A stretch of 12,602 bases of DNA, taken from a virus. The stretch is from positions 1 to 12,602 of IMG/VR virus record IMGVR_UViG_3300045988_094612; one strand, written 5' to 3'. The notes beneath the pieces are model-generated. The model saw nothing but the letters and a program-made list of their open reading frames with translations, searched no databases and was not told where the DNA came from. The position numbers and the translations under genes were made by a program. Shown piece by piece: positions 2,315-12,602 of this stretch (the first letter of the stretch is position 1; each line of letters begins with the position of its first letter).

Positions 2315-2569
2315 ATGACAAAAGATATTAATATAACCGATTTTTTCACTTATTTTGTAGTCAATTACAAGCAAGACACTAAATATATGGTTTATTTACT
2401 AGTATATGGAGGTGGCAAACTATATATTAATAACGATTTGACATTTACATATGAACAACCAAATAAAATGAGTTTAATCGGTGTGCTTACCTTATTTGAA
2501 GAAATAATTCAATGCGATTGTGAGAATTTATTAGATATTCTTTACATAAAGGAGGTAATTAAAGACTAA
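2315..2569 (+). CDS. Early protein (84 aa), unknown function
   Basis: The preferred start is ATG 2315 (SD AAGGAG 2300..2305, 9-nt spacing) rather than 2234, which lies inside the previous gene. The stop overlaps the next ATG (TAATG). Confidence 0.55.
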   Translation: MTKDINITDFFTYFVVNYKQDTKYMVYLLVYGGGKLYINNDLTFTYEQPNKMSLIGVLTLFEEIIQCDCENLLDILYIKEVIKD

Positions 2570-3330
2570 TGCCTAAGAGACTTAAATTAAATTTATCTTA
2601 TAACGATTTAAATAAAATGTCTCTTACTGATTTAAAAAGCTATGCCATAAAGCTTAACAACGTTGCAAACTTGAGAGTAAGAAAGCTAAGAGAATTTGCT
2701 CCTTACTCTCCCGCTTTGTCTTCATACGAACGTAGCGAGTTAGGTACTTTTAGAATTGGTAAGGACGCGGATATTAATAGCTTACGCAAAAGCGTAGCTA
2801 GGGCAAAACACTTTCTTGAAATGGAGACGAGTACAGTTAGAGGTTCTATAAATGTTACATTACGCACTTTAAAACGCTTCGGTATAGAACCTCCTGATTT
2901 TAGCAAGAAAGAAAAAAAACCAAGAGGACGACCAAAAGGTTCAAAAAATAAAATTAAAACAAACGTACCTAAAGAGAAAAAACCAAGAGGACGACCAAAA
3001 GGTTCAAAAAATAAAAACGCATATAGTCAATATATTGAGACCGTAAAATGGTTATATTCAAAGAGAGAATTATTAAAAGAGTTCTTCGACTTGTACAATA
3101 GATATAAAGATTTATACCATGGTGGCGAACTACCTAGTGATACTATTAAAGTAGGTATGGATGTATTTTTGGACCTTAAAAATGATTTATTACAAAAAGT
3201 TGGCGACGAATGGGTAAATAGAGAAACGGGAGAAATAGTAGACCGAGACCAAATATTCTTTGATATTATGAATCAAAAAATAGAGAGAATGCACGACTAT
3301 ATTTATAGCTCATACAATCAATATAACTAA
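2569..3330 (+). CDS. Putative terminal protein (253 aa) carrying two tandem AT-hook motifs (KKPRGRPKGSKNK x2)
   Basis: It sits immediately upstream of, and is coupled to, the protein-primed DNA polymerase, as in phi29 gene 3 / gene 2. Its size is similar to phi29 TP (266 aa). By eye it resembles phi29 TP around YHGGELPSDTI (phi29 YAGGKPQGTI). RGRP is the AT-hook core. There is a Ser/Tyr-rich C-terminus. Confidence 0.5.
   Translation: MPKRLKLNLSYNDLNKMSLTDLKSYAIKLNNVANLRVRKLREFAPYSPALSSYERSELGTFRIGKDADINSLRKSVARAKHFLEMETSTVRGSINVTLRTLKRFGIEPPDFSKKEKKPRGRPKGSKNKIKTNVPKEKKPRGRPKGSKNKNAYSQYIETVKWLYSKRELLKEFFDLYNRYKDLYHGGELPSDTIKVGMDVFLDLKNDLLQKVGDEWVNRETGEIVDRDQIFFDIMNQKIERMHDYIYSSYNQYN
2913..3017 (+). 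repeat. Roughly 40-bp direct repeat, two copies 63 bp apart, encoding the two AT-hook units
   Basis: AAAAAACCAAGAGGACGACCAAAAGGTTCAAAAAATAAAA occurs at about 2915..2954 and 2977..3016. Confidence 0.85.
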
Positions 3331-3332
3331 TT

Positions 3333-5420
3333 ATGAAACAATACAATACGATTAAGGAGTGTTTAGCAAATGTAAAAAACTTTAAAACATACAAAAAAAG
3401 ACATAGAGATAAATACTTTAATAATCGTATTTGCTTTGACATTGAAGTATCTAGTTTCTATGTTGAAGGTATTGAAAAAGAACTAACTAAAAGAGCATGT
3501 TGTTACGCTTATATTTTTGGTATCGACGGCAATTATAAAATCGGTAGAAGCTTAGAAGAATTTATAAAAGACGTTGATTATCTTGAGTATGTTATGCATA
3601 AAAAAGACCCTGAAGCACATATAGTTATATGGATCCACAACTTAGCATATGAGTTTCAGTTTATTAGAAAGTATTTTGAGATACAGGAAATTTTAGCAAA
3701 CGACGAGAGAAAGATTATATACGCAGTTACTAAAAATAATATCGAGTTTAGATGTAGCTATATGTTGAGTGGATACTCTTTACGTAAAGTAGGAGAAAAT
3801 CTAAGACACCATACCGCTAAAAAAATGGTAGGAGATTTAGACTATTCCTTATTAAGAGGATCTACAACTCCACTAACTGAAAAAGAAATCGGATATATCA
3901 GGGAAGACTACGAGGTATTAGACAACTACATTGAAGAAGAACTCGAAACTTATCAATATATCTCACGATTACCATTAACTAAAACGGGTAAAGTAAGAAA
4001 GTTTTGTCGTAAAGTTTGCAATGAAAAAGGCGACTATAGAAAAAGATTTATTAAAAATCTTGTTATTAACGACGCTCAAGAATATATGCTTATGCGACGT
4101 GCTTTCATGGGAGGCTTTACACATGCTAACTCATTGGCTGTTAATAACTTAATTAGAGATGTAACATCTATCGACTTTACTAGCTCTTATCCCGCCGTTA
4201 TGGTGAGTGAGATGTTCCCTATGAGTCGAGGTCAAATAATAGAGATTAAATCTTTAGACCAAATAAAAGAATTATCTAAAAGAAACTGTCTTATATTTGA
4301 TATAGAGTTTTGGGATTTAGAAAGTACTTTTATTTATGAGTCTTATTTGTCAAGTTCACATGGTATCACTGAGGGAGCTACGACGATAAACAATGGTAGA
4401 ATAGTTATGACTAAATATTTAAAAACTACAATAACTAACATAGATTTAGATATAATAGAGAAAGTTTATAAATGGACTAAATGTAAAATAGGTTTGTGCT
4501 ACGTTTATAAAAAATGGTACCTCCCTACTACATTTGTAAAAAGTATCTTAATGTTATATAAAGACAAAACAACTTTAAAAGGTATTGACGACAAGATAGC
4601 CGAATACATGAATTCCAAAGAAATGTTAAACTCTTGTTATGGTATGACTGTTACTGATATTATTAAACCTGAGGTAGAATATGACGACGAGGAGGGGTGG
4701 CATACCGAAGAAATGACACTCGATAAACGAGGAGAATTAGTAGAAAAGTATAACAATCAGCGCTCAAGGTTTTTATTCTATCCATGGGGTGTTTTTATCA
4801 CAGCATATGCTAGGCGGAACCTGTGGTCAGGTATTTTAGAATTTGGAGAAGATTACTGCTATAGTGATACCGACTCGATCAAAGGAATTAATTATAAAAA
4901 ACATAAGAATTATGTTGATAAATACAACGATATATGTTATCATAAATTAGAGGTAGCAATGAGTTATCATAAACTTGATATATCATTGTGCGCTCCGACA
5001 ACTATAAAAGGAGAAAAGAAAATCATAGGCGTTTGGGATTATGACGGTCATTATGATATGTTCAAAACTTTAGGAGCTAAACGCTATATGGTATATAACA
5101 ACAAAGGATTATCATTAACTATATCAGGAGTTAATAAAACTAAAGCAGTACCTTATTTACTCAAAAAGTATAAAAACGATATACAACAAATATTTGATAG
5201 TTTTAGTAATGGATTTGAGGTACCCTCACCACATGCGGGCAAGCAAATTCTTACATATATTGACTATGAAACGAGCGGAGAGTTTATGGACTATTTAGGC
5301 AATAGACAAACGTATCATGAGTTAAGCTCAGTACATATGGAAGAGGGAAGCTATACATTGACAATGAGTGACGAGTACTTAAAATTCTTAGCGGAAGGAG
5401 TGAAGATAGATTATGTATAA
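3333..5420 (+). CDS. Protein-primed family-B DNA polymerase (695 aa)
   Basis: Contains Exo I FDIEV, Exo II HNLAYE (phi29 HNLKFD), Exo III YIRED, motif A DFTSSYPA (DxxSLYPS), motif B KEMLNSCYG (Kx3NSxYG), YPWGVFITAYAR (phi29 TPMGVFITAWAR), motif C YCYSDTDS (YxDTDS) and KRYMVY (KxY). The N-terminus YKIGRSLEEFI matches phi29 YKIGNSLDEFM. There is no SD; the start is 2 nt after the TP stop, suggesting coupling. Confidence 0.95.
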   Translation: MKQYNTIKECLANVKNFKTYKKRHRDKYFNNRICFDIEVSSFYVEGIEKELTKRACCYAYIFGIDGNYKIGRSLEEFIKDVDYLEYVMHKKDPEAHIVIWIHNLAYEFQFIRKYFEIQEILANDERKIIYAVTKNNIEFRCSYMLSGYSLRKVGENLRHHTAKKMVGDLDYSLLRGSTTPLTEKEIGYIREDYEVLDNYIEEELETYQYISRLPLTKTGKVRKFCRKVCNEKGDYRKRFIKNLVINDAQEYMLMRRAFMGGFTHANSLAVNNLIRDVTSIDFTSSYPAVMVSEMFPMSRGQIIEIKSLDQIKELSKRNCLIFDIEFWDLESTFIYESYLSSSHGITEGATTINNGRIVMTKYLKTTITNIDLDIIEKVYKWTKCKIGLCYVYKKWYLPTTFVKSILMLYKDKTTLKGIDDKIAEYMNSKEMLNSCYGMTVTDIIKPEVEYDDEEGWHTEEMTLDKRGELVEKYNNQRSRFLFYPWGVFITAYARRNLWSGILEFGEDYCYSDTDSIKGINYKKHKNYVDKYNDICYHKLEVAMSYHKLDISLCAPTTIKGEKKIIGVWDYDGHYDMFKTLGAKRYMVYNNKGLSLTISGVNKTKAVPYLLKKYKNDIQQIFDSFSNGFEVPSPHAGKQILTYIDYETSGEFMDYLGNRQTYHELSSVHMEEGSYTLTMSDEYLKFLAEGVKIDYV

Positions 5421-5495
5421 ATTTTACAAATTACAAACTATATTAGATAAAAAGTTTACTTTTATAAGAATGCCTAGAAGCTACGGGTATAGAGA

Positions 5496-6599
5496 ATGGC
5501 TAAAGAAAAAGAAGAACATTATAGATTAGATAAAATACTAGCACATAAAGCACAATATTATATGATTATCGGTGAGCGTTCTAATGGCAAGACTTATGCT
5601 ATCTTAGAACACTGCTTAAAGGAATATGTTAAAAGCGGATACAAGAAAGAATTTTGTATCTTGAGACGTTGGCAAGACGACTTTAAACCTAAAAACTCTA
5701 CGCAAATGTTCGCGGGTCATATTCAAAATGGTGTAATAACTAGACTCACAAAGGGAGAATTTAACTCGGTATCTTATTTAGGTGGTCGTTGGTATCTAGC
5801 ATTTGTCGACGAGCACGGAGCTACAACAAAGAAAATGCAAACACCTTTTTGCTATGGTTTTGCTCTTAATGACCAAGAACACATTAAATCAATCTCATTC
5901 CCTAATATTAAAAATATTTTCTTTGACGAGTTCTTATCAAGTAATTACTATCTACCTGATGAATTTGTTATCTTCATGAACGTATTATCAACTATTATAC
6001 GTTTACGTAACGACGTTACAATATTCATGGCAGGTAACACGATCAATCCTTATGCACCTTACTTTAATGAAATGGGATTAAAACATGTTAAGAACATGAA
6101 AAAAGGTGAGATTGAAGTATATACTTACGGTGATAGTGGGCTTAAAGTAGCAGTTGAGTTCTCGGACTATTACGGTAAAAAGAAGAGTAACATCTACTTT
6201 GCTTTTGACAATCCTAAACTAACTATGATTACAGGCGTTGGGGGTACTTGGGAAATAAACATCTACCCTCACTTGCCTTGTAAATATAAGCCAAAAGAAA
6301 TATTATTTACTTATTTTATTTTATTCGACAACGAGATATTCCAATGCGAAATCGTTTCAACAAACGATATGACGTTCACATACATACACCGTAAAACGGG
6401 AGAGTTGAAAGACAAGGGGGACTTAATATTCGACCTTGTACCAAATGGGAAGCCTAACTATGTTACTAACATCTATAGTTCTGGTAGTCCTGTAGTAAAT
6501 ATGATTTTATCCTTTTTCAAACTGAGTAAGGTTTTTTATCAAGACAATACGGTAGGTGAGTCAATAAGAAACTATTTACAAGTTTGTATTAGAGGCTAA
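5496..6599 (+). CDS. DNA packaging (encapsidation) ATPase, phi29 gp16-like (367 aa)
   Basis: Walker A GERSNGKTY and Walker B IFFDEF. The block IKNIFFDEFLSSNYYLPDEF...AGNTINPYAPYFNEMGL resembles phi29 gp16 TIVFDEFIREKDNSNYIPNE...LSNAVSVVNPYFLFF. Confidence 0.9.
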   Translation: MAKEKEEHYRLDKILAHKAQYYMIIGERSNGKTYAILEHCLKEYVKSGYKKEFCILRRWQDDFKPKNSTQMFAGHIQNGVITRLTKGEFNSVSYLGGRWYLAFVDEHGATTKKMQTPFCYGFALNDQEHIKSISFPNIKNIFFDEFLSSNYYLPDEFVIFMNVLSTIIRLRNDVTIFMAGNTINPYAPYFNEMGLKHVKNMKKGEIEVYTYGDSGLKVAVEFSDYYGKKKSNIYFAFDNPKLTMITGVGGTWEINIYPHLPCKYKPKEILFTYFILFDNEIFQCEIVSTNDMTFTYIHRKTGELKDKGDLIFDLVPNGKPNYVTNIYSSGSPVVNMILSFFKLSKVFYQDNTVGESIRNYLQVCIRG

Positions 6600-6658
6600 A
6601 ATAGAAATGGAGGTATATCAAAATAAATACCACTTTAGAAAATATTGTAGATAGCTCC

Positions 6659-6898
6659 TTGATAGTCTTAACAGGAACTGTGGGAATACAACAAATCGAG
6701 TCTATTATAGGAATTATTAGTGTATCTTTATCAGTTCTATGGATTTTGTTCAAGTTGGCCTTAAAAGTGTACCAAGCTCTTAAGAATAAAGACTATAGCA
6801 ACTTAGAGAACAACATTAATAAGACTAAAGAAGAACTCGACAAGATTAAAGAAGACTTAGAAAGCAGGAGAGAAAATGGCGGACAAGATACCGAATAG
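6659..6898 (+). CDS. Small membrane protein (79 aa): an N-terminal transmembrane helix plus a charged coiled-coil tail. Candidate holin.
   Basis: The hydrophobic segment IIGIISVSLSVLWILFKLAL is followed by a K/E-rich C-terminus. The ORF has no in-frame ATG, so the start is presumably TTG 6659 (no SD) or GTG 6680. Its stop overlaps the connector gene start. Confidence 0.4.
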   Translation: MIVLTGTVGIQQIESIIGIISVSLSVLWILFKLALKVYQALKNKDYSNLENNINKTKEELDKIKEDLESRRENGGQDTE

Positions 6899-7889
6899 GC
6901 AAGATTGGAGTTATGAAAAATTATTAGGTTGTAATAGAAACCCATTGAAAGACAAAGAGCGCTTAGTATGTCAACACAAAAGTTACATGTTATCACGTCT
7001 TAATCAGTTGTTTGAATGGGACGGCTTACCAGAGACAATACCACAAAAAGAGTTTGAATGGATATTATTAATGCAGGGCAAAGCAACTATTGCCGACGTA
7101 CCTAACAAAGGCTTATATGCTTTTCAATCCAACTTAGGAGGTATCTTGAACCCTTACTACTTACCTACTCAGTCAATTGTAGTCAATCCTTACTTACCAT
7201 TTAACAAGGTACTTGAGGTTGATAAAGATTGTGTTGTAATTCGTAACACTTCAACATTTACTCCTATTAATGATATGTTAGATTTATACGCTAACATGCT
7301 AGCCGAGATTGATATATCTTTAAGAATTGCTACCGTTAATAGTCGTATTAGTTCTCTTATATCCGTAGGAGACGAAGCGACCAAAGATAGTGCTACGAAG
7401 TTCTTAGAAGATATAGAAAAAGGCAAGCTAGGAGTTATAGCTACTAACAAATTCATGGAGAGTCTTAAAGGTGGTCTTAATGCAATTCAATATGCAGGTA
7501 CTATTAGTAACATTCAGGACCTTATAGAATTAAGACAGTACATCTTAGCTACGTGGTTTAACCAACTTGGCTTAAACGCTAACTATAATATGAAACGTGA
7601 AGCTATCAACGAGAGCGAGGCTGATTTAAACGAAGAGGCTTTAATGCCATTGATAGACGATATGTTGCAATGTAGACAAGAGGGAGCCGAGAAAGTTAAT
7701 GCTATGTTTGGTACTAATCTTAGTGTTAAACTCAACTCTTCATGGAAGCTCCAAAGAAAAGAAATAGAAACATCTATGGAACTTGCCGAGAAAGAATTAA
7801 ATACCGAAGAAAACGAAGAAACACAAGAAGAGGGAGAAAGTAAGGAAGAACCAACCGAAGACAAGGATAAAGAAAATGATAACGATTAA
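6876..7889 (+). CDS. Head-tail connector / portal protein, phi29 gp10-like (337 aa) with an acidic C-terminal tail
   Basis: LSRLNQLFEWDGLPETIP matches phi29 connector LAYQLFEWENLPPTI. The size is similar (phi29 309 aa). SD AGGAGA upstream. Confidence 0.8.
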   Translation: MADKIPNRQDWSYEKLLGCNRNPLKDKERLVCQHKSYMLSRLNQLFEWDGLPETIPQKEFEWILLMQGKATIADVPNKGLYAFQSNLGGILNPYYLPTQSIVVNPYLPFNKVLEVDKDCVVIRNTSTFTPINDMLDLYANMLAEIDISLRIATVNSRISSLISVGDEATKDSATKFLEDIEKGKLGVIATNKFMESLKGGLNAIQYAGTISNIQDLIELRQYILATWFNQLGLNANYNMKREAINESEADLNEEALMPLIDDMLQCRQEGAEKVNAMFGTNLSVKLNSSWKLQRKEIETSMELAEKELNTEENEETQEEGESKEEPTEDKDKENDND

Positions 7890-8652
7890 AGATTATTTTG
7901 AACCATTAATGATGGACGATACCGAGGAAACAACCGGAATATTTAGAGCACTTGAAGAGGTAGTAAAAAGTCTAACTACACCTGACGAGATTTTAACAAA
8001 AATCTTTGATGGTAAAGGTAGTGTACTTGATATGGACTATGTCTATACACACGCATACTCTAAATGGTGTGCTTTTATACTAGAGAGATTAACTGAGTTT
8101 GTTAAAACTCTAATGCCATCTATTAGTGACAATAGAGCAAAAGTACTTACATTAGGAACACAAATCGCACCGTTATTATTAACTCGTTTCTCCGAGATTT
8201 GGAAGAAAAAGTATGTAGCTATTACCGCCGATTACACTCCAACAAACGACTACAAAGAGAATGAGAAAGTTGATTACACTTCCCACGGTGTTGATACTCC
8301 TCAAACTACTACAACGAGTAAAACGAGTACTGACACTACTCAGTCAACTAGTGTAACTCAAAATGCTAATACATATGCTTTTGATAGTATAAGTGAGACT
8401 CCTACCGCTCTCAACACAGGTGACCAAAGTGTCAATAGTACGGGTGCTCCTGATAAAAACTATACTGAGACTACCACAGGTGGAACCAATACAAGTGATG
8501 TCAACAGCACTAACACAATCACTAGGGAGGGAAAACACGGCTCAACCAACTATAGTGTATTAATTGAAAACGAGCTTAAACTACGTGAATACGATTTTTA
8601 TCAAGAGATGTTCAAAGATATTGATAGTATATTAACGTTATCAATTTATTAG
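7876..8652 (+). CDS. Structural protein (258 aa): a helical N-terminal half and a Thr/Ser/Asn-rich low-complexity C-terminal half. Possible lower-collar or head-fibre analogue.
   Basis: ORF coupled to the connector gene (start lies within the connector's last codons). About 110 residues are greater than 45% T/S/N. There is no recognisable motif; the assignment rests on position only. Confidence 0.4.
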   Translation: MITIKDYFEPLMMDDTEETTGIFRALEEVVKSLTTPDEILTKIFDGKGSVLDMDYVYTHAYSKWCAFILERLTEFVKTLMPSISDNRAKVLTLGTQIAPLLLTRFSEIWKKKYVAITADYTPTNDYKENEKVDYTSHGVDTPQTTTTSKTSTDTTQSTSVTQNANTYAFDSISETPTALNTGDQSVNSTGAPDKNYTETTTGGTNTSDVNSTNTITREGKHGSTNYSVLIENELKLREYDFYQEMFKDIDSILTLSIY

Positions 8653-8668
8653 AAGGGAGGACACAAAA

Positions 8669-8932
8669 TTGTACGTAGGAGGATATTTATTAATTAGCCT
8701 ACCTTTTGAAGCTAAGGCAGGCACACACAAAGTAGATGGTATCTACAATAGACTTGAAAGTAACTTATACAAAGCAACTAGGGTTAATGGGTTATACAAC
8801 ACAGTTGGACAAATTAGTGATTTTTATGTAACTTTTGTATTAACCACTGGTAATTATGTAGCAAAAGTTAATAGTACCGTAGGAATTACTACTATTACAA
8901 TTAAACCAACTGACGAGGTAGTATTTGCATAA
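8669..8932 (+). CDS. Small beta-rich structural protein (87 aa), TTG start
   Basis: Strong SD AAGGGAGG (8653..8660) lies 8 nt upstream of TTG 8669. The ORF has no in-frame ATG before residue 1. Confidence 0.5.
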   Translation: MYVGGYLLISLPFEAKAGTHKVDGIYNRLESNLYKATRVNGLYNTVGQISDFYVTFVLTTGNYVAKVNSTVGITTITIKPTDEVVFA

Positions 8933-9237
8933 TGGGTGGAATAATTGAAATAACAATACCTTATGAATTATGGGATAACACTAATACGTACCCTATACAA
9001 TTACCAAAAGGTACATATAAGTCTTTAATTGAAACACCTAGCAAAGTTTTATATATTCATGTTGTAGAATCTAAGACAAAGGATGTAGATTACACAGGTA
9101 GAGAATATATCTTAAACACTTTAGAAGCAATTACAACACTTGAAACAAATGAAAATTCAATAGATATTAGTATCGGCTTTAACAATATCGCTAACGAGTT
9201 TTTTATCACATCGGACGATACTATAAGCTATAAATAA
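8932..9237 (+). CDS. Small structural protein (101 aa), unknown function
   Basis: TAATG overlap with the previous gene. The composition is beta-rich. It sits immediately upstream of the major capsid gene but does not look like a helical scaffold. Confidence 0.5.
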   Translation: MGGIIEITIPYELWDNTNTYPIQLPKGTYKSLIETPSKVLYIHVVESKTKDVDYTGREYILNTLEAITTLETNENSIDISIGFNNIANEFFITSDDTISYK

Positions 9238-9265
9238 ATTTGAAAAGGAGGAATATATATTTTAA

Positions 9266-10411
9266 ATGACAGTAAAACAAATTTATGAATTAGTAAACGC
9301 AAGTACAAAACAAGTATTAGGAGAAACTGCTATCCTTACTGAAGATTTATCCAATGTCATTGATATTGGTACTGAAATCTTTAACGCTAACGCAGTAGAT
9401 AACTATGTCAAAACTTTAGTTGATAGAATTGGTAAAGTTATCTTTGTTAATAGACCCTATAGTGGTTCTATCCCTTCAGTCTTAATGGACTCATGGGAGT
9501 ACGGTTCAGTCACTGAAAAAATTCAAATGGATTTACCTGAAGCCGAAGTCAACGAGTCATGGGAATTACAAGATAGAGCTACTTATGACCAAAACTACTT
9601 CTATCAACCAAAAATCTCTGTTAAGTTCTTTAATAAGATGGTAACTTTTGAAGTTCCAATGTCAATCACTGAAAGACAAGTTCAAGAAAGCTTTACCTCA
9701 GCTCAAGCTTTAGGAAGCTTTGTTGGCATGATTTGGACAATGATTGAAAACTCCATGACCGTTAAACTTGATAGTTTAATCTTAATGACTATCAATAATA
9801 TGATTAGCTTAACTGACTTAGCTAACGGTGGCGGAGAAGCTCAACACGTCCATTTATTAACTGAATATAAAGCTCTCAATCCTGACTTTACAAAAACAGG
9901 TGAAGCTGCAATGACTGATTTAGGTTTCTTAAAATATGCCGCTTTTAGAATTAAATTAGTAGCAGGTCGAATGACTCAATATTCGGATGTCTTTAACGCT
10001 GAAAAGAAATCAAGACACACACCTAAGGATTTAATGCACATTGTATTATTATCCGACTTTAAAAATGCAGCGGATGTATATTTACAATCTGATACATTCC
10101 ACAATGAACTATCAGCTTTACCAAATAGTGAAACAGTTCAATATTGGCAAGGTTCAGGTAATGGTAGTGACGCATTTACATTCGCTAATACATCCAAGAT
10201 TAATATCAAAAACTCCAATGGCAATACATATACTAAGTCTAATATCATTGGCGTTATCTTTGATAGAGACGCATTAGGTGTTACTAAGAAAAATACACGT
10301 ATTCGCTCACACGTTGTTGATAAAGCTGAGTTCTACAACTATTGGTATAAAGCTGATGTAGGCTACTTCAACGACTTAAGCGAAAACTTCGTTTGCTTCT
10401 TAATTGATTAG
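9266..10411 (+). CDS. Major capsid protein, phi29 gp8-like (381 aa)
   Basis: YVKTLVDRIGKVIFVNR matches phi29 gp8 ITSLVDRIGLVVIRQ (recalled). The size and position fit, and the gene is followed by a strong terminator. SD GGAGGA upstream (13-nt spacing). Confidence 0.7.
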   Translation: MTVKQIYELVNASTKQVLGETAILTEDLSNVIDIGTEIFNANAVDNYVKTLVDRIGKVIFVNRPYSGSIPSVLMDSWEYGSVTEKIQMDLPEAEVNESWELQDRATYDQNYFYQPKISVKFFNKMVTFEVPMSITERQVQESFTSAQALGSFVGMIWTMIENSMTVKLDSLILMTINNMISLTDLANGGGEAQHVHLLTEYKALNPDFTKTGEAAMTDLGFLKYAAFRIKLVAGRMTQYSDVFNAEKKSRHTPKDLMHIVLLSDFKNAADVYLQSDTFHNELSALPNSETVQYWQGSGNGSDAFTFANTSKINIKNSNGNTYTKSNIIGVIFDRDALGVTKKNTRIRSHVVDKAEFYNYWYKADVGYFNDLSENFVCFLID

Positions 10412-10419
10412 TTGAAATT

Positions 10420-10450
10420 AGGGGGTATAGAAATATACCTCCTTTTCTTT
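10420..10450 (+). terminator. Rho-independent terminator: 10-bp stem AGGGGGTATA/TATACCTCCT with a GAAA tetraloop and a TTTCTTT tail
   Basis: Seen directly. The stem is 10420..10429 pairing with 10434..10443 (one G-U pair), the loop is GAAA, and a T-rich run follows. It lies just after the capsid gene stop. Confidence 0.7.
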
Positions 10451-10468
10451 AAATAAAAAGGAGAAAAT

Positions 10469-10690
10469 ATGAAATTAAAAGAAGTCTTAAAATTAATTAA
10501 CAATGAATTTATTAATTATACAATATACCGTGATAAAAAAGTTGTTGCTCACTTTTCTACAAGATACCAAAAAGAAGTAGAAGAGATAACAAGAAGATAC
10601 GGACACTATAACGTTACAAATATTGGAGCTTTCATAACTTGTGACTATGAATGTGTTGTGTCATTAACACTTGAGGAAGTATTGTTATGA
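10469..10690 (+). CDS. Small protein (73 aa), unknown function
   Basis: Good SD AAAAAGGAGA 7 nt upstream. ATGA overlap with the downstream tail gene. Confidence 0.55.
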   Translation: MKLKEVLKLINNEFINYTIYRDKKVVAHFSTRYQKEVEEITRRYGHYNVTNIGAFITCDYECVVSLTLEEVLL

Positions 10691-12519
10691 AGATAACTTT
10701 ATACCAAAATGTTAGTGAACATAACCAAATGGACAAGGATTTAACTAAAGTTAAAGATATTGACGGTAAGTTTAAACAATCCACTAATATTATGAGTCCT
10801 GTATTAGTATTGAGTTATGCAACACTTCCCGATTTTAATTATATATATATTGAAGAATTAGCTCGATATTATTTTGTTGACAGTATCACAAGTATTAACG
10901 AAGGGATATGGCAAATCAATTGTAGTGAGGATGTATTAGAGACTTACGGGATCGGGATATTAAATCTTACGGCATATGTAACTAGAAATGAAAATGAATA
11001 TAATGATTATATTATAGATAAATATCTTATAAAAACAGCTAAAAAACTATATGATATTATTACACCATTAGAAAATGAGACCGACGGAAGAAATTTATTT
11101 TTAAACAATAACACCTTTAATATAGATTTTACACATGATGGCGCCCCTGCGGAGCTATCTAGTGTAACGGACTCTTTTTGTTATACTATCTCAACTAGCA
11201 ATATGACTGGAGGCCCAATTTTATTTGACCCTGAAACAGGAGTACCTACAAGCTTAGATTATATGCAAGCTAGTATAGATAATAATCAATATTCCAAATA
11301 TGGTGTTACTCAATGGGGTAAACAATTTTATCACGATGGCTTTAATAAAGTATGGGCTTTAAATAATAATAACTTACAAGCTATAGGTTCTTTACTCAAA
11401 GCAAAAGTTACAGATGTAGAAAGTGGAAGAATGTATGAAAATCTAGGTCAAATGATAAATGGATTAAAAGTATATCCATTTTCTATACCTGAGTATTTTT
11501 ATCTATGTGGTATAAGTGTAGATAAACTACCACAAGGTAATTATGCGGATTACATGAAAAAAAAACAAGGAGATAACAAAAACATACAACCTATTACAAT
11601 AGGTAACACCGCAATTGAAAATCTAGTCACTTCCGAAAAAAACACTATAGGCCAATCAGCTAACTTATATGGTGCTCCACAATTAACAGGTTGGTTATTA
11701 CCGCACCAAATAATGAGTTGCAAACTAGCTACCTTTGGTTTTGATAATGACGCTATATTATACAATAATTATCTTGATTATGAACCTTATACACAATTAC
11801 AACTTTATGTTCCGTTCTTCGGTTATATAACTATTCCTACAAATGTAGTAATAGGTAACAAAATATATTTATATTTATCGGTAGATTTTATAACGGGACT
11901 AGGAACATTATATATCACAGTAGATATAAATGGTAAAGAAACTTTAATTAATACTCAAAATAGTAAAATTGCTTATGACCTCGCTTATGGTTCTACAAAT
12001 ATAAATGAATTAGAAAGACTAACCGAATTAACCAAATCTAGGGATGCGAACAGGACAATAAGTAACATAGTAGGGAATGCATTAAGTGTTCTAACAGCTA
12101 TACCAATTGGTACGGTAAATCCAATCGCAGGAGTTACAATGGGTTTAAGTGCTTTAGTCAATACCGCACGAGGAAGTTTTAGCGATATAACTACTTATTT
12201 TAATGATGTAGACTCCAGCGCTACGACTCCTTTAAATGGTAATACCGTTTCGGGGGGAGGATCCCAAAATGGGGCAAGCAATTTGATATCACCGCGTGGG
12301 ATATTTATACTAAGAGAAAGAGTAGAAGAATATAGACCAACTTCTAATTATGCTAAATTCTTAGGTAGACCGCTAGAGATACAAAAGAATATATCTAAAT
12401 TACATGGATTTACTAAAGTGGGTAGTGTTCGTATAGAGGGAGATGATTTTGCCAAAGCTACCGAGCAAGAAAAACAAACAATAGAACAAACCTTAAAAAA
12501 TGGTTTTATACTCAGGTGA
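10687..12519 (+). CDS. Tail knob / distal tail tube protein, phi29 gp9-like (610 aa)
   Basis: SPRGIFILRERVEEYR matches phi29 gp9 GYRGVYVIKKQLKAEYR (recalled). The Gly/Ala-rich hydrophobic segment NALSVLTAIPIGTVNPIAGVTMGLSALVNTA is analogous to the gp9 membrane-active loop. The size (phi29 599 aa) and the C-terminal pattern are similar. Confidence 0.65.
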   Translation: MKITLYQNVSEHNQMDKDLTKVKDIDGKFKQSTNIMSPVLVLSYATLPDFNYIYIEELARYYFVDSITSINEGIWQINCSEDVLETYGIGILNLTAYVTRNENEYNDYIIDKYLIKTAKKLYDIITPLENETDGRNLFLNNNTFNIDFTHDGAPAELSSVTDSFCYTISTSNMTGGPILFDPETGVPTSLDYMQASIDNNQYSKYGVTQWGKQFYHDGFNKVWALNNNNLQAIGSLLKAKVTDVESGRMYENLGQMINGLKVYPFSIPEYFYLCGISVDKLPQGNYADYMKKKQGDNKNIQPITIGNTAIENLVTSEKNTIGQSANLYGAPQLTGWLLPHQIMSCKLATFGFDNDAILYNNYLDYEPYTQLQLYVPFFGYITIPTNVVIGNKIYLYLSVDFITGLGTLYITVDINGKETLINTQNSKIAYDLAYGSTNINELERLTELTKSRDANRTISNIVGNALSVLTAIPIGTVNPIAGVTMGLSALVNTARGSFSDITTYFNDVDSSATTPLNGNTVSGGGSQNGASNLISPRGIFILRERVEEYRPTSNYAKFLGRPLEIQKNISKLHGFTKVGSVRIEGDDFAKATEQEKQTIEQTLKNGFILR

Positions 12520-12526
12520 TTATAGG

Positions 12527-12549
12527 CTCATGGGATTTACTCTCATGGG
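12527..12549. repeat. Direct repeat CTCATGGG (12527..12534 and 12542..12549) between the last gene and the right ITR
   Basis: Seen directly. GC-richer than the surroundings. Possible origin-proximal binding site. Confidence 0.5.
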
Positions 12550-12564
12550 CTTTTCAATTGTAAT

Positions 12565-12602
12565 AAATTCCCATCTCGCAGCGGGGGGGGGTTTGGATAT
12601 TT
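12565..12602. repeat. Right inverted terminal repeat: AATTCCCATCTCGCAGC-G10-TTTGGATATTT
   Basis: Reverse complement of 1..37, with one extra base in the homopolymer. Confidence 0.9.

Follow-up and report, generated by a model that had tools for sequence, protein, structure and literature searches.

The closest described relatives of the genome considered here are phages of the Astrithrvirus group (cluster 23, 11–14 kb), for which a small lower collar, an absence of tail fibres and a tail knob encoded in two genes have been reported (PMC11476376). Many further phi29-like genomes of 12–15 kb from human metagenomes are catalogued in the same source. The subject of the present analysis is the IMG/VR virus record IMGVR_UViG_3300045988_094612, a stretch of 12,602 bp that was analysed over its whole length and is called the window below. 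It carries six hallmarks of phi29-like phages, namely a protein-primed DNA polymerase (DNAP), a gp16 packaging ATPase, a connector, a lower collar, a major capsid protein (MCP) and a tail knob. We consider it probable, with moderate confidence, that the window is the complete genome of an autonomous and virulent mini-podovirus from the human gut, of the phi29 type and with protein-primed replication, belonging to a sister lineage of the Astrithrvirus group. What is unusual in this genome is the unsplit tail knob and the lack of a detectable hydrolase, fibre or scaffold.

The window has a GC content of 31.5% and is bounded by a perfect 37-nt inverted terminal repeat (ITR; positions 1–37 and 12566–12602, 100% complementary). 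The left copy begins with 5'-AAA and includes a C9 run, and relatives stop at the same motif: several related contigs terminate at …CCCATCTCGCAG-polyG, and several are truncated at the poly-C/G tract close to the ends. The right copy, the perfect complement of the left one, is directly preceded by a strong terminator-like hairpin 3' of the last gene (12524–12552; -28.9 kcal/mol for 12520–12602, z = -3.7). The same gene set is present in ten related IMG/VR contigs as well as in many Logan, ENA, JGI and NCBI assemblies, and the longest related contig in public data is ~13.4 kb. Since the ITR and the shared terminal motif coincide with the absence of any longer relative, the window is taken to be a complete linear genome and not a fragment of a larger one. 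All 18 plausible open reading frames (ORFs) lie on the plus strand, as do all features described below, and most of them are preceded by GGAGG-type ribosome-binding sites; 93% of the window is coding and no gene is broken. TGA serves as a stop codon three times, once within an ATGA overlap, so the standard genetic code is used. No tRNA genes were found in the window.

The replication, packaging and capsid genes are recognised by profile searches. The DNAP (3333–5420) matches PF03175 (E 1.9e-11) and phrog_1907 (E 5.6e-62), and its exonuclease and polymerase motifs can be read as FDIE, HNLAYE, DFTSSYP, KEMLNSCYG and YSDTDS. The gp16-type ATPase (5496–6599, 367 aa; PF05894, E 4.3e-12; phrog_2150, E 1.1e-31) has GERSNGKT as Walker A and IFFDE as Walker B motif. 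It is followed by the connector, i.e. the gp10-like upper collar protein (6876–7889, 337 aa; PF05352, E 2.3e-17; phrog_2038, E 3.7e-38), which has an acidic C-terminal tail, and by the phi29-type MCP of the HK97 fold (9266–10411, 381 aa; PF25622, E 2.3e-49, with 169 bits where 27 is the cut-off). The original prediction, which was made from the letters of the window, had named all four of these proteins together with a gp9-like knob, had placed them in the order ATPase, connector, MCP, knob, and had put every gene on one strand; the searches bear out each of these assignments.

The same prediction had counted a terminal protein among the homologues recognisable by eye, and this part could not be upheld. 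The candidate (2569–3330, 253 aa, net charge +20) was compared with phi29 gp3 by hhalign and is not similar to it; its support comes from its position directly upstream of the DNAP gene and from the family of pre-DNAP ORFs of the Astrithrvirus group. A block of motifs at its N-terminus recurs in the pre-DNAP ORFs of phages Phanie and astrithr and of contigs L013 and L016 (L016, E 8e-9; Phanie, E 4.5e-6). The literature offered no usable account of a muralytic activity for the phi29 terminal protein. The protein is inferred to be the terminal protein, and its covalent linkage to DNA is putative. Its gene contains a tandem 46-nt repeat (2908–2953 and 2971–3016) that encodes two KPRGRPKG AT-hook-like motifs (residues 117–124 and 138–145), an insertion absent from the homologues in Phanie, astrithr, L013 and L016.

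The ORF at 7876–8652 (258 aa) gave no match in Pfam, PHROGs or PDB-sequence searches, and the original prediction had described the genome as lacking a lower collar. An exhaustive HMMER search collected a family of 784 representatives for this ORF, one of which matches PHROG 3225 'adaptor Ad4', and the AlphaFold2 model built on an alignment of 60 sequences has a predicted local distance difference test score (pLDDT) of 83.8. In the model, a helical domain at the N-terminus is followed by long beta-hairpins (residues 126–219) and by helices at the C-terminus. The best three Foldseek matches in the PDB are all lower collars (phi29 6qz9_0A, E 7.8e-9; Andhra 8egr_I; P68 6iac_B), and beta-barrel pore toxins come next; the same succession of collars and pore toxins is reported for gp11 (PMC11476376). 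The consensus motifs of the family align to gp11 residues 87–107 and 253–268, and the ORF is matched by the collar-position ORF of L016 (E 2.7e-11) and by astrithr gp07 (E 6e-3). By its predicted fold, the product is thus an ordinary gp11-type lower collar (proximal tail tube) protein, an outcome that the prediction had itself named in advance as contrary to its claim.

The last gene of the window (10687–12519) encodes a protein of 610 aa, which aligns along the full length of phi29 gp9. Its model was built on an alignment of 19 homologues (pLDDT 59) and is confident at residues 1–130, 330–430 and 540–610. All nine Foldseek matches in the PDB at E<=1e-3 are tail knobs, among them those of phi29 (5fb5, E 3.2e-9), C1 (4eo2, E 2e-5) and Andhra (8egs, E 5.9e-5). 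Only the N-terminal ~100 residues match astrithr gp09, and the 'tail knob' of Phanie is likewise matched by the N-terminus. The modelled fold identifies the product as a full-length tail knob encoded in a single gene. Both this protein and the lower collar were resolved by fold searches only: when single sequences of phi29 gp11 and gp9 were compared by hhalign, similarity was weak or confined to motifs (probabilities 0.8%, 4% and 74%), and neither PDB-sequence profile searches nor tblastn against the phage records returned anything for either of them.

No structural protein of the clade varies more than the knob (43–95% identity); its N-terminus is conserved, and variability peaks at residues 140–220 and 440–520. 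A hydrophobic stretch rich in Gly, Ala and Ile is located at about residues 458–497. The variable middle (residues 120–340), used as a profile, matched nothing in PDB or Pfam. Among the relatives the knob gene is variously split, unsplit or reordered. In L016 (3566–5805) the C-terminal part (595 aa) precedes the N-terminal one (150 aa), several ORFs of L030 (3217–6774) are related to the knob, the N-part is followed by the C-part in the Astrithrvirus group, and the window has one fused gene.

Comparison with the Astrithrvirus group shows an extensive common architecture. Its members have linear genomes of 11–12 kb that end in ITRs (the one of Phanie is 171 nt long and has a comparable C-run) and share with the window the order terminal protein-like ORF, DNAP, ATPase, small transmembrane (TM) protein, connector, lower collar, MCP and knob; their annotated order opens with a small ORF, and a protein of ~185 aa occupies the collar position. 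Protein identities are 49–52% for the MCP (Phanie 52%, astrithr 49%), ~50% for the ATPase, ~43% for the DNAP and 35–37% for the connector. When the whole window was compared by megablast with 50,697 phage records, no nucleotide match appeared. Given this lack of nucleotide-level similarity, to be set against a genus criterion of about 70% of the International Committee on Taxonomy of Viruses, and protein identities of 35–52%, the window does not belong to the genus Astrithrvirus. The two also differ in content. In the Astrithrvirus group the knob is split into proteins of ~146–158 aa and 570–850 aa, the latter with Ig-like domains; Phanie and astrithr encode a CHAP lysin, which would be expected downstream of the knob, and minus-strand genes are present at the right end. 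The window, in contrast, ends at its single knob gene, has neither a CHAP domain nor minus-strand genes, and carries three ORFs of 87, 101 and 73 aa around the MCP gene that the group lacks. It also has a lower GC content, Gram-positive-like Shine-Dalgarno (SD) sites and a human-gut origin, whereas the Astrithrvirus group consists of wastewater isolates on Gram-negative hosts.

With phi29 (Salasmaviridae, Picovirinae) the window shares the protein-primed replication module, the gp16 ATPase, gp10 connector, gp11 collar and gp8-type MCP, an unsplit knob of nearly the same length (610 versus 599 aa) and a genome that begins with 5'-AAA. It differs in genome size (12.6 versus 19.3 kb), in the length of the ITR (37 versus 6 nt) and in having its genes in another order on one strand, whereas phi29 has divergent early and late operons. 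The phi29 scaffold gp7, head fibre gp8.5, appendage gp12, tail lysin gp13, lysis protein gp14, endolysin gp15 and packaging RNA (pRNA) are unmatched in the window. The differences in size, strand and order had been put forward previously as distinguishing features; they are real, but they are not new, being known from the Astrithrvirus group and from 12–15 kb gut genomes. The size, gene order, near-unidirectional layout and lack of pRNA are thus already known, and it is the lineage itself that is distinct. A further set of small genomes, AD70P2 and AD70P3 of Amedibacillus together with clusters 12–30 of PMC11476376 and MT836125.1, resembles the window in its origin from human gut or sewage, its size of 12–13 kb and its low GC content. 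Genomes of the AD70P2/AD70P3 type also share the phi29-type MCP (30–38% identical), a knob homologue and a small TM protein, which in their case is of the GFPI type. Their gene order (ATPase, helical acidic scaffold-like ORF, MCP, knob, connector) differs from that of the window, and AD70P3 (CHAP) and MT836125.1 (GH24) carry a recognisable lysin, which the window does not.

Searches of the 18 ORFs and the other frames with Pfam, PHROGs, NCBIfam and PDB sequences detected no lysin, no appendage or fibre and no scaffold. Six real lysins and phi29 gp7, gp8.5, gp12, gp13, gp14 and gp15 gave no phmmer match in any of the six frames, and lysin, fibre and scaffold were equally undetected in the 12 close relatives. 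For pRNA there was no Rfam match at E<=1. Seven non-coding stretches, all of them short, were folded as pRNA candidates and rejected, being structured only at the terminators. That this genome would have no recognisable lysin, appendage, scaffold or pRNA had been predicted, and at their sensitivity all of these searches agree with it. The lack of pRNA is uninformative, because pRNA is recorded only in phi29 and related Bacillus phages and is absent from all phi29-like phages outside that group (PMC11476376). Lysins of relatives outside the clade are found by Pfam, namely GH24 in MT836125.1, GH25 in L016, CHAP in AD70P3, Phanie and astrithr, and Amidase_2 in L013. No Pfam-recognisable lysin was found in L028, L029 and L030, more distant genomes of ~12 kb with single-gene knob homologues, and neither fibre nor scaffold was detectable in them. 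These three are Logan contigs of 11.6–12.8 kb, each with a small TM protein within the structural module; L028 additionally encodes a fragment of a C-5 cytosine DNA methylase, and its late genes precede the early ones.

The only ORF of the window with a strong TM segment is located between the ATPase and connector genes (6659–6898). Its product of ~79 aa crosses the membrane once and has a C-terminus that is charged and coiled (KD19 2.27; phrog_1009, E 1e-6). The ORF was missed by public gene callers, which left 6600–6875 (276 nt) unannotated. Its variable sites are distributed over the three codon positions as 10/4/19, and this excess of substitutions at third positions indicates that it is coding and under purifying selection. 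An RNA gene at 6600–6875 was considered as well and ruled out by the third-position substitutions in the frame of the ORF. At the corresponding place Phanie, astrithr and L013 also encode TM proteins, and the product of the window may be regarded as a holin-like candidate. The start of the gene is ambiguous, being either TTG at 6659 or ATA at 6623, the in-frame codon that is suitably spaced downstream of a conserved GGAGG (6609–6613). No canonical start follows this GGAGG, the first one being TTG at 6659, and ahead of the gene the window carries a 1-nt insertion (T, ~6608) relative to all 12 relatives. In the small single-TM proteins of L001, L002, L003, L004, L013 and L016 a conserved '(V/L/M)GFP(I/V)' motif precedes a coiled C-terminus; in MT836125.1 a GFPI-type protein adjoins the lysin gene, and the protein of the window has the same layout without the motif.

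For an autonomous phage the following cycle may be proposed. The early genes would be driven by two duplicated sigma70 promoters. Late expression would be shaped by a promoter-like site at 5358–5385 (11/12 match, to the consensus only), which lies within the 3' end of the DNAP gene before the packaging and structural genes, and by the terminators after the knob gene and after the MCP gene, the latter an intrinsic terminator-like hairpin at 10420–10443 (z = -3.3). Replication would be primed at the AAA-starting ends by the basic 253-aa protein, and the DNA would be packaged by the ATPase through the connector without a recognisable pRNA. The tail would consist of the lower-collar tube and a hexameric knob only. 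The receptor is probably bound by the variable regions of the knob, and the membrane is probably opened by its hydrophobic loop, by analogy with the membrane-penetrating loop of phi29 gp9 (Xu et al. 2016, as summarised in PMC11476376). Release would rely on the TM protein of 6659–6898 and on a muralytic activity; the latter would either have diverged beyond recognition or come from autolysins of the host.

Several observations weigh against such an autonomous cycle. Neither the 18 ORFs nor the other frames contain a peptidoglycan hydrolase, a receptor-binding fibre or a scaffold, although six relatives outside the clade do carry a lysin that Pfam recognises, and to our knowledge a lysin-free tailed phage of a walled host would be unprecedented. 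Failure to detect a lysin does not prove its absence, and this weighs against an explanation that dispenses with the enzyme altogether: the host could be a wall-less or wall-poor gut bacterium, i.e. a Mollicutes-like member of the Bacillota with the standard code, in which the knob would meet the membrane directly and a single membrane protein would suffice for release. The undetected entry and exit lysins and fibre in the clade and in L028, L029 and L030, all of which keep a TM protein, fit this proposal, as do the low GC content (31.5%) with strong SD sites and the membrane-active appearance of the hydrophobic stretch of the knob. Yet the use of TGA as a stop excludes Mycoplasma and Spiroplasma, though not Acholeplasma-like lineages, and the scan of genome contigs returned only mis-binned contigs of metagenome-assembled genomes (MAGs) and no link to a host, so that we hold a wall-less host to be improbable. 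Still less credit can be given to an incomplete or chimeric assembly with the lysin and fibre genes on unassembled sequence. The source is indeed a metagenomic contig, and several relatives are cut at the poly-C/G tract near their ends; but the perfect ITR at both ends, the hairpin directly before the right one, the high coding density with intact genes, and more than 12 independent JGI, ENA, Logan and NCBI assemblies with the same gene set and none above ~13.4 kb make this very improbable.

The likeliest of the alternatives follows from the closest isolate by MCP (52%), Acinetobacter phage Phanie, whose virions are described as infecting only when attached to the tail of the myophage Aci01-1 (Pourcel et al. 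2024, cited in PMC11476376 and PMC13587820); PMC11476376 adds that relatives of Phanie may share this strategy. The phage of the window could similarly provide its own replication, packaging, head and stubby tail and use the tail of a helper for adsorption or wall penetration, and perhaps also its lysis. The lack of a receptor-binding protein and of a lysin in the window and its clade would be explained in this way, and satellite lifestyles are reportedly common among HK97-fold phages of 12–20 kb. Phanie, however, encodes its own CHAP lysin and a knob that is divided between two genes and contains Ig-like domains; its dependence is therefore not explained by gene loss, and the features associated with that dependence are missing from the window, where the knob is unsplit. 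Salmonella phage Astrid, a member of the same group with the same architecture, is described as non-satellite (bioRxiv 10.1101/2025.06.18.659913). Dependence on a helper is therefore rather unlikely in our opinion, although it has a precedent in Phanie. The autonomous reading is supported by the 12.2-kb phages of Amedibacillus, which were isolated on their own host.

With the window, the smallest known tailed phages gain a well-defined human-gut lineage that is apparently prevalent. The genome takes an intermediate position in evolution, with head and replication genes nearest to those of the Astrithrvirus group, which infects Gram-negative bacteria, and with a knob in one piece, as in phi29 and other phages of Gram-positive hosts. 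Such a combination is relevant to the proposal that the knob was split once, in the ancestor of the branch infecting Gram-negative hosts (PMC11476376). The lack of lysin and fibre, if real, poses the question of how a phage equipped with no more than a collar, a knob and a single small membrane protein enters and leaves its host, and whether helper dependence of the Phanie type is common in mini-podoviruses. We can only tentatively suggest, and think it on balance doubtful, that one or more widespread gut lineages encode neither a hydrolase nor a receptor appendage and either infect wall-less bacteria or, like Phanie, depend on the tail and the lysis of another phage. If this were true, the smallest tailed phages would have resorted repeatedly to helper dependence or lysin-free release.

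The origin of the window from the human gut follows from its relatives: all close IMG/VR ones come from metagenome 3300045988, described in a preprint as a co-assembly of human faecal samples, and another was found in a MetaHIT-type sample. The GGAGG sites, the low GC content and the DDDLPF tail of one early protein suggest a low-GC, Bacillota-type host. The scan of genome contigs for a host returned only ~50%-identical contigs in MAGs of unrelated taxa; these contigs (L016–L020, ~50% MCP identity) are binned into Oscillospiraceae, Muribaculaceae, Staphylococcaceae and Methanobrevibacter MAGs. It has been cautioned that phi29-like contigs of this kind are mis-assigned to archaea and bacteria (PMC11476376).

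Three small ORFs surround the MCP gene, none of which matches PDB sequences or phage records. The first (8669–8932, 87 aa) encodes a head-module protein that is 76–95% conserved in the clade and has no family match; its homologues in L030 (E 2.4e-6) and L016 (E 1.4e-3) are likewise located immediately upstream of the MCP gene. The second (8932–9237, 101 aa) is the most variable small gene of the clade, with 59–86% identity among close relatives and no matches. It is missing from L012, where ~100 nt (9782–9881) separate the 87-aa ORF from the MCP gene, and it is therefore dispensable; the earlier suggestion that it might supply one of the missing functions does not hold for an essential function. 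The third (10469–10690, 73 aa) is coupled to the knob gene by ATGA, is 91–97% conserved and has no matches. All three are unlike the helical acidic scaffold that lies upstream of the MCP gene in AD70P3 and MT836125.1.

The early region opens with a 100-nt direct repeat, the two copies of which are 98% identical and each contain TTGACA-17-TATAAT and an SD site. The first copy (169–268) comprises a sigma70-type promoter (208–236, 12/12 match) and the SD of the ORF at 269–520 (83 aa; 90–96% conserved in L006, L009, L011 and L012; no family match). The second (541–640) comprises a promoter at 580–608 and is followed by a 22-codon mini-ORF (642–710), which overlaps the ATG of the next ORF (707–1039, 110 aa; 96–97% conserved, no matches) in an ATGA. 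At the second repeat L009 and L012, the largest relatives, carry ~1.1 kb of additional small early genes, none of them a lysin, which gives the window the appearance of a form shortened by deletion, possibly through recombination between the promoter repeats.

The remaining early ORFs at 1041–1292 (83 aa) and at 2315–2569 (84 aa; ATG start, open from TTG at 2234) have no family match. Those at 1271–1519 (82 aa) and 1555–1788 (77 aa) are acidic, helical paralogues, as seen from direct repeats spaced 266 nt and from tblastn cross-matches; close relatives mostly have a single copy, which better matches the second ORF. The ORF at 1846–2301 (151 aa, no family match) ends in ...TTDDDLPF and contains an internal ...NDDDLLEF. 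This C-terminus resembles the acidic tip of bacterial single-stranded DNA-binding proteins (SSBs; DDDLPF in the Bacillota type), a recruiter of host replication proteins, and the product could be a single-stranded DNA-binding or host-replisome-recruiting protein, i.e. a phage SSB or a mimic of one.

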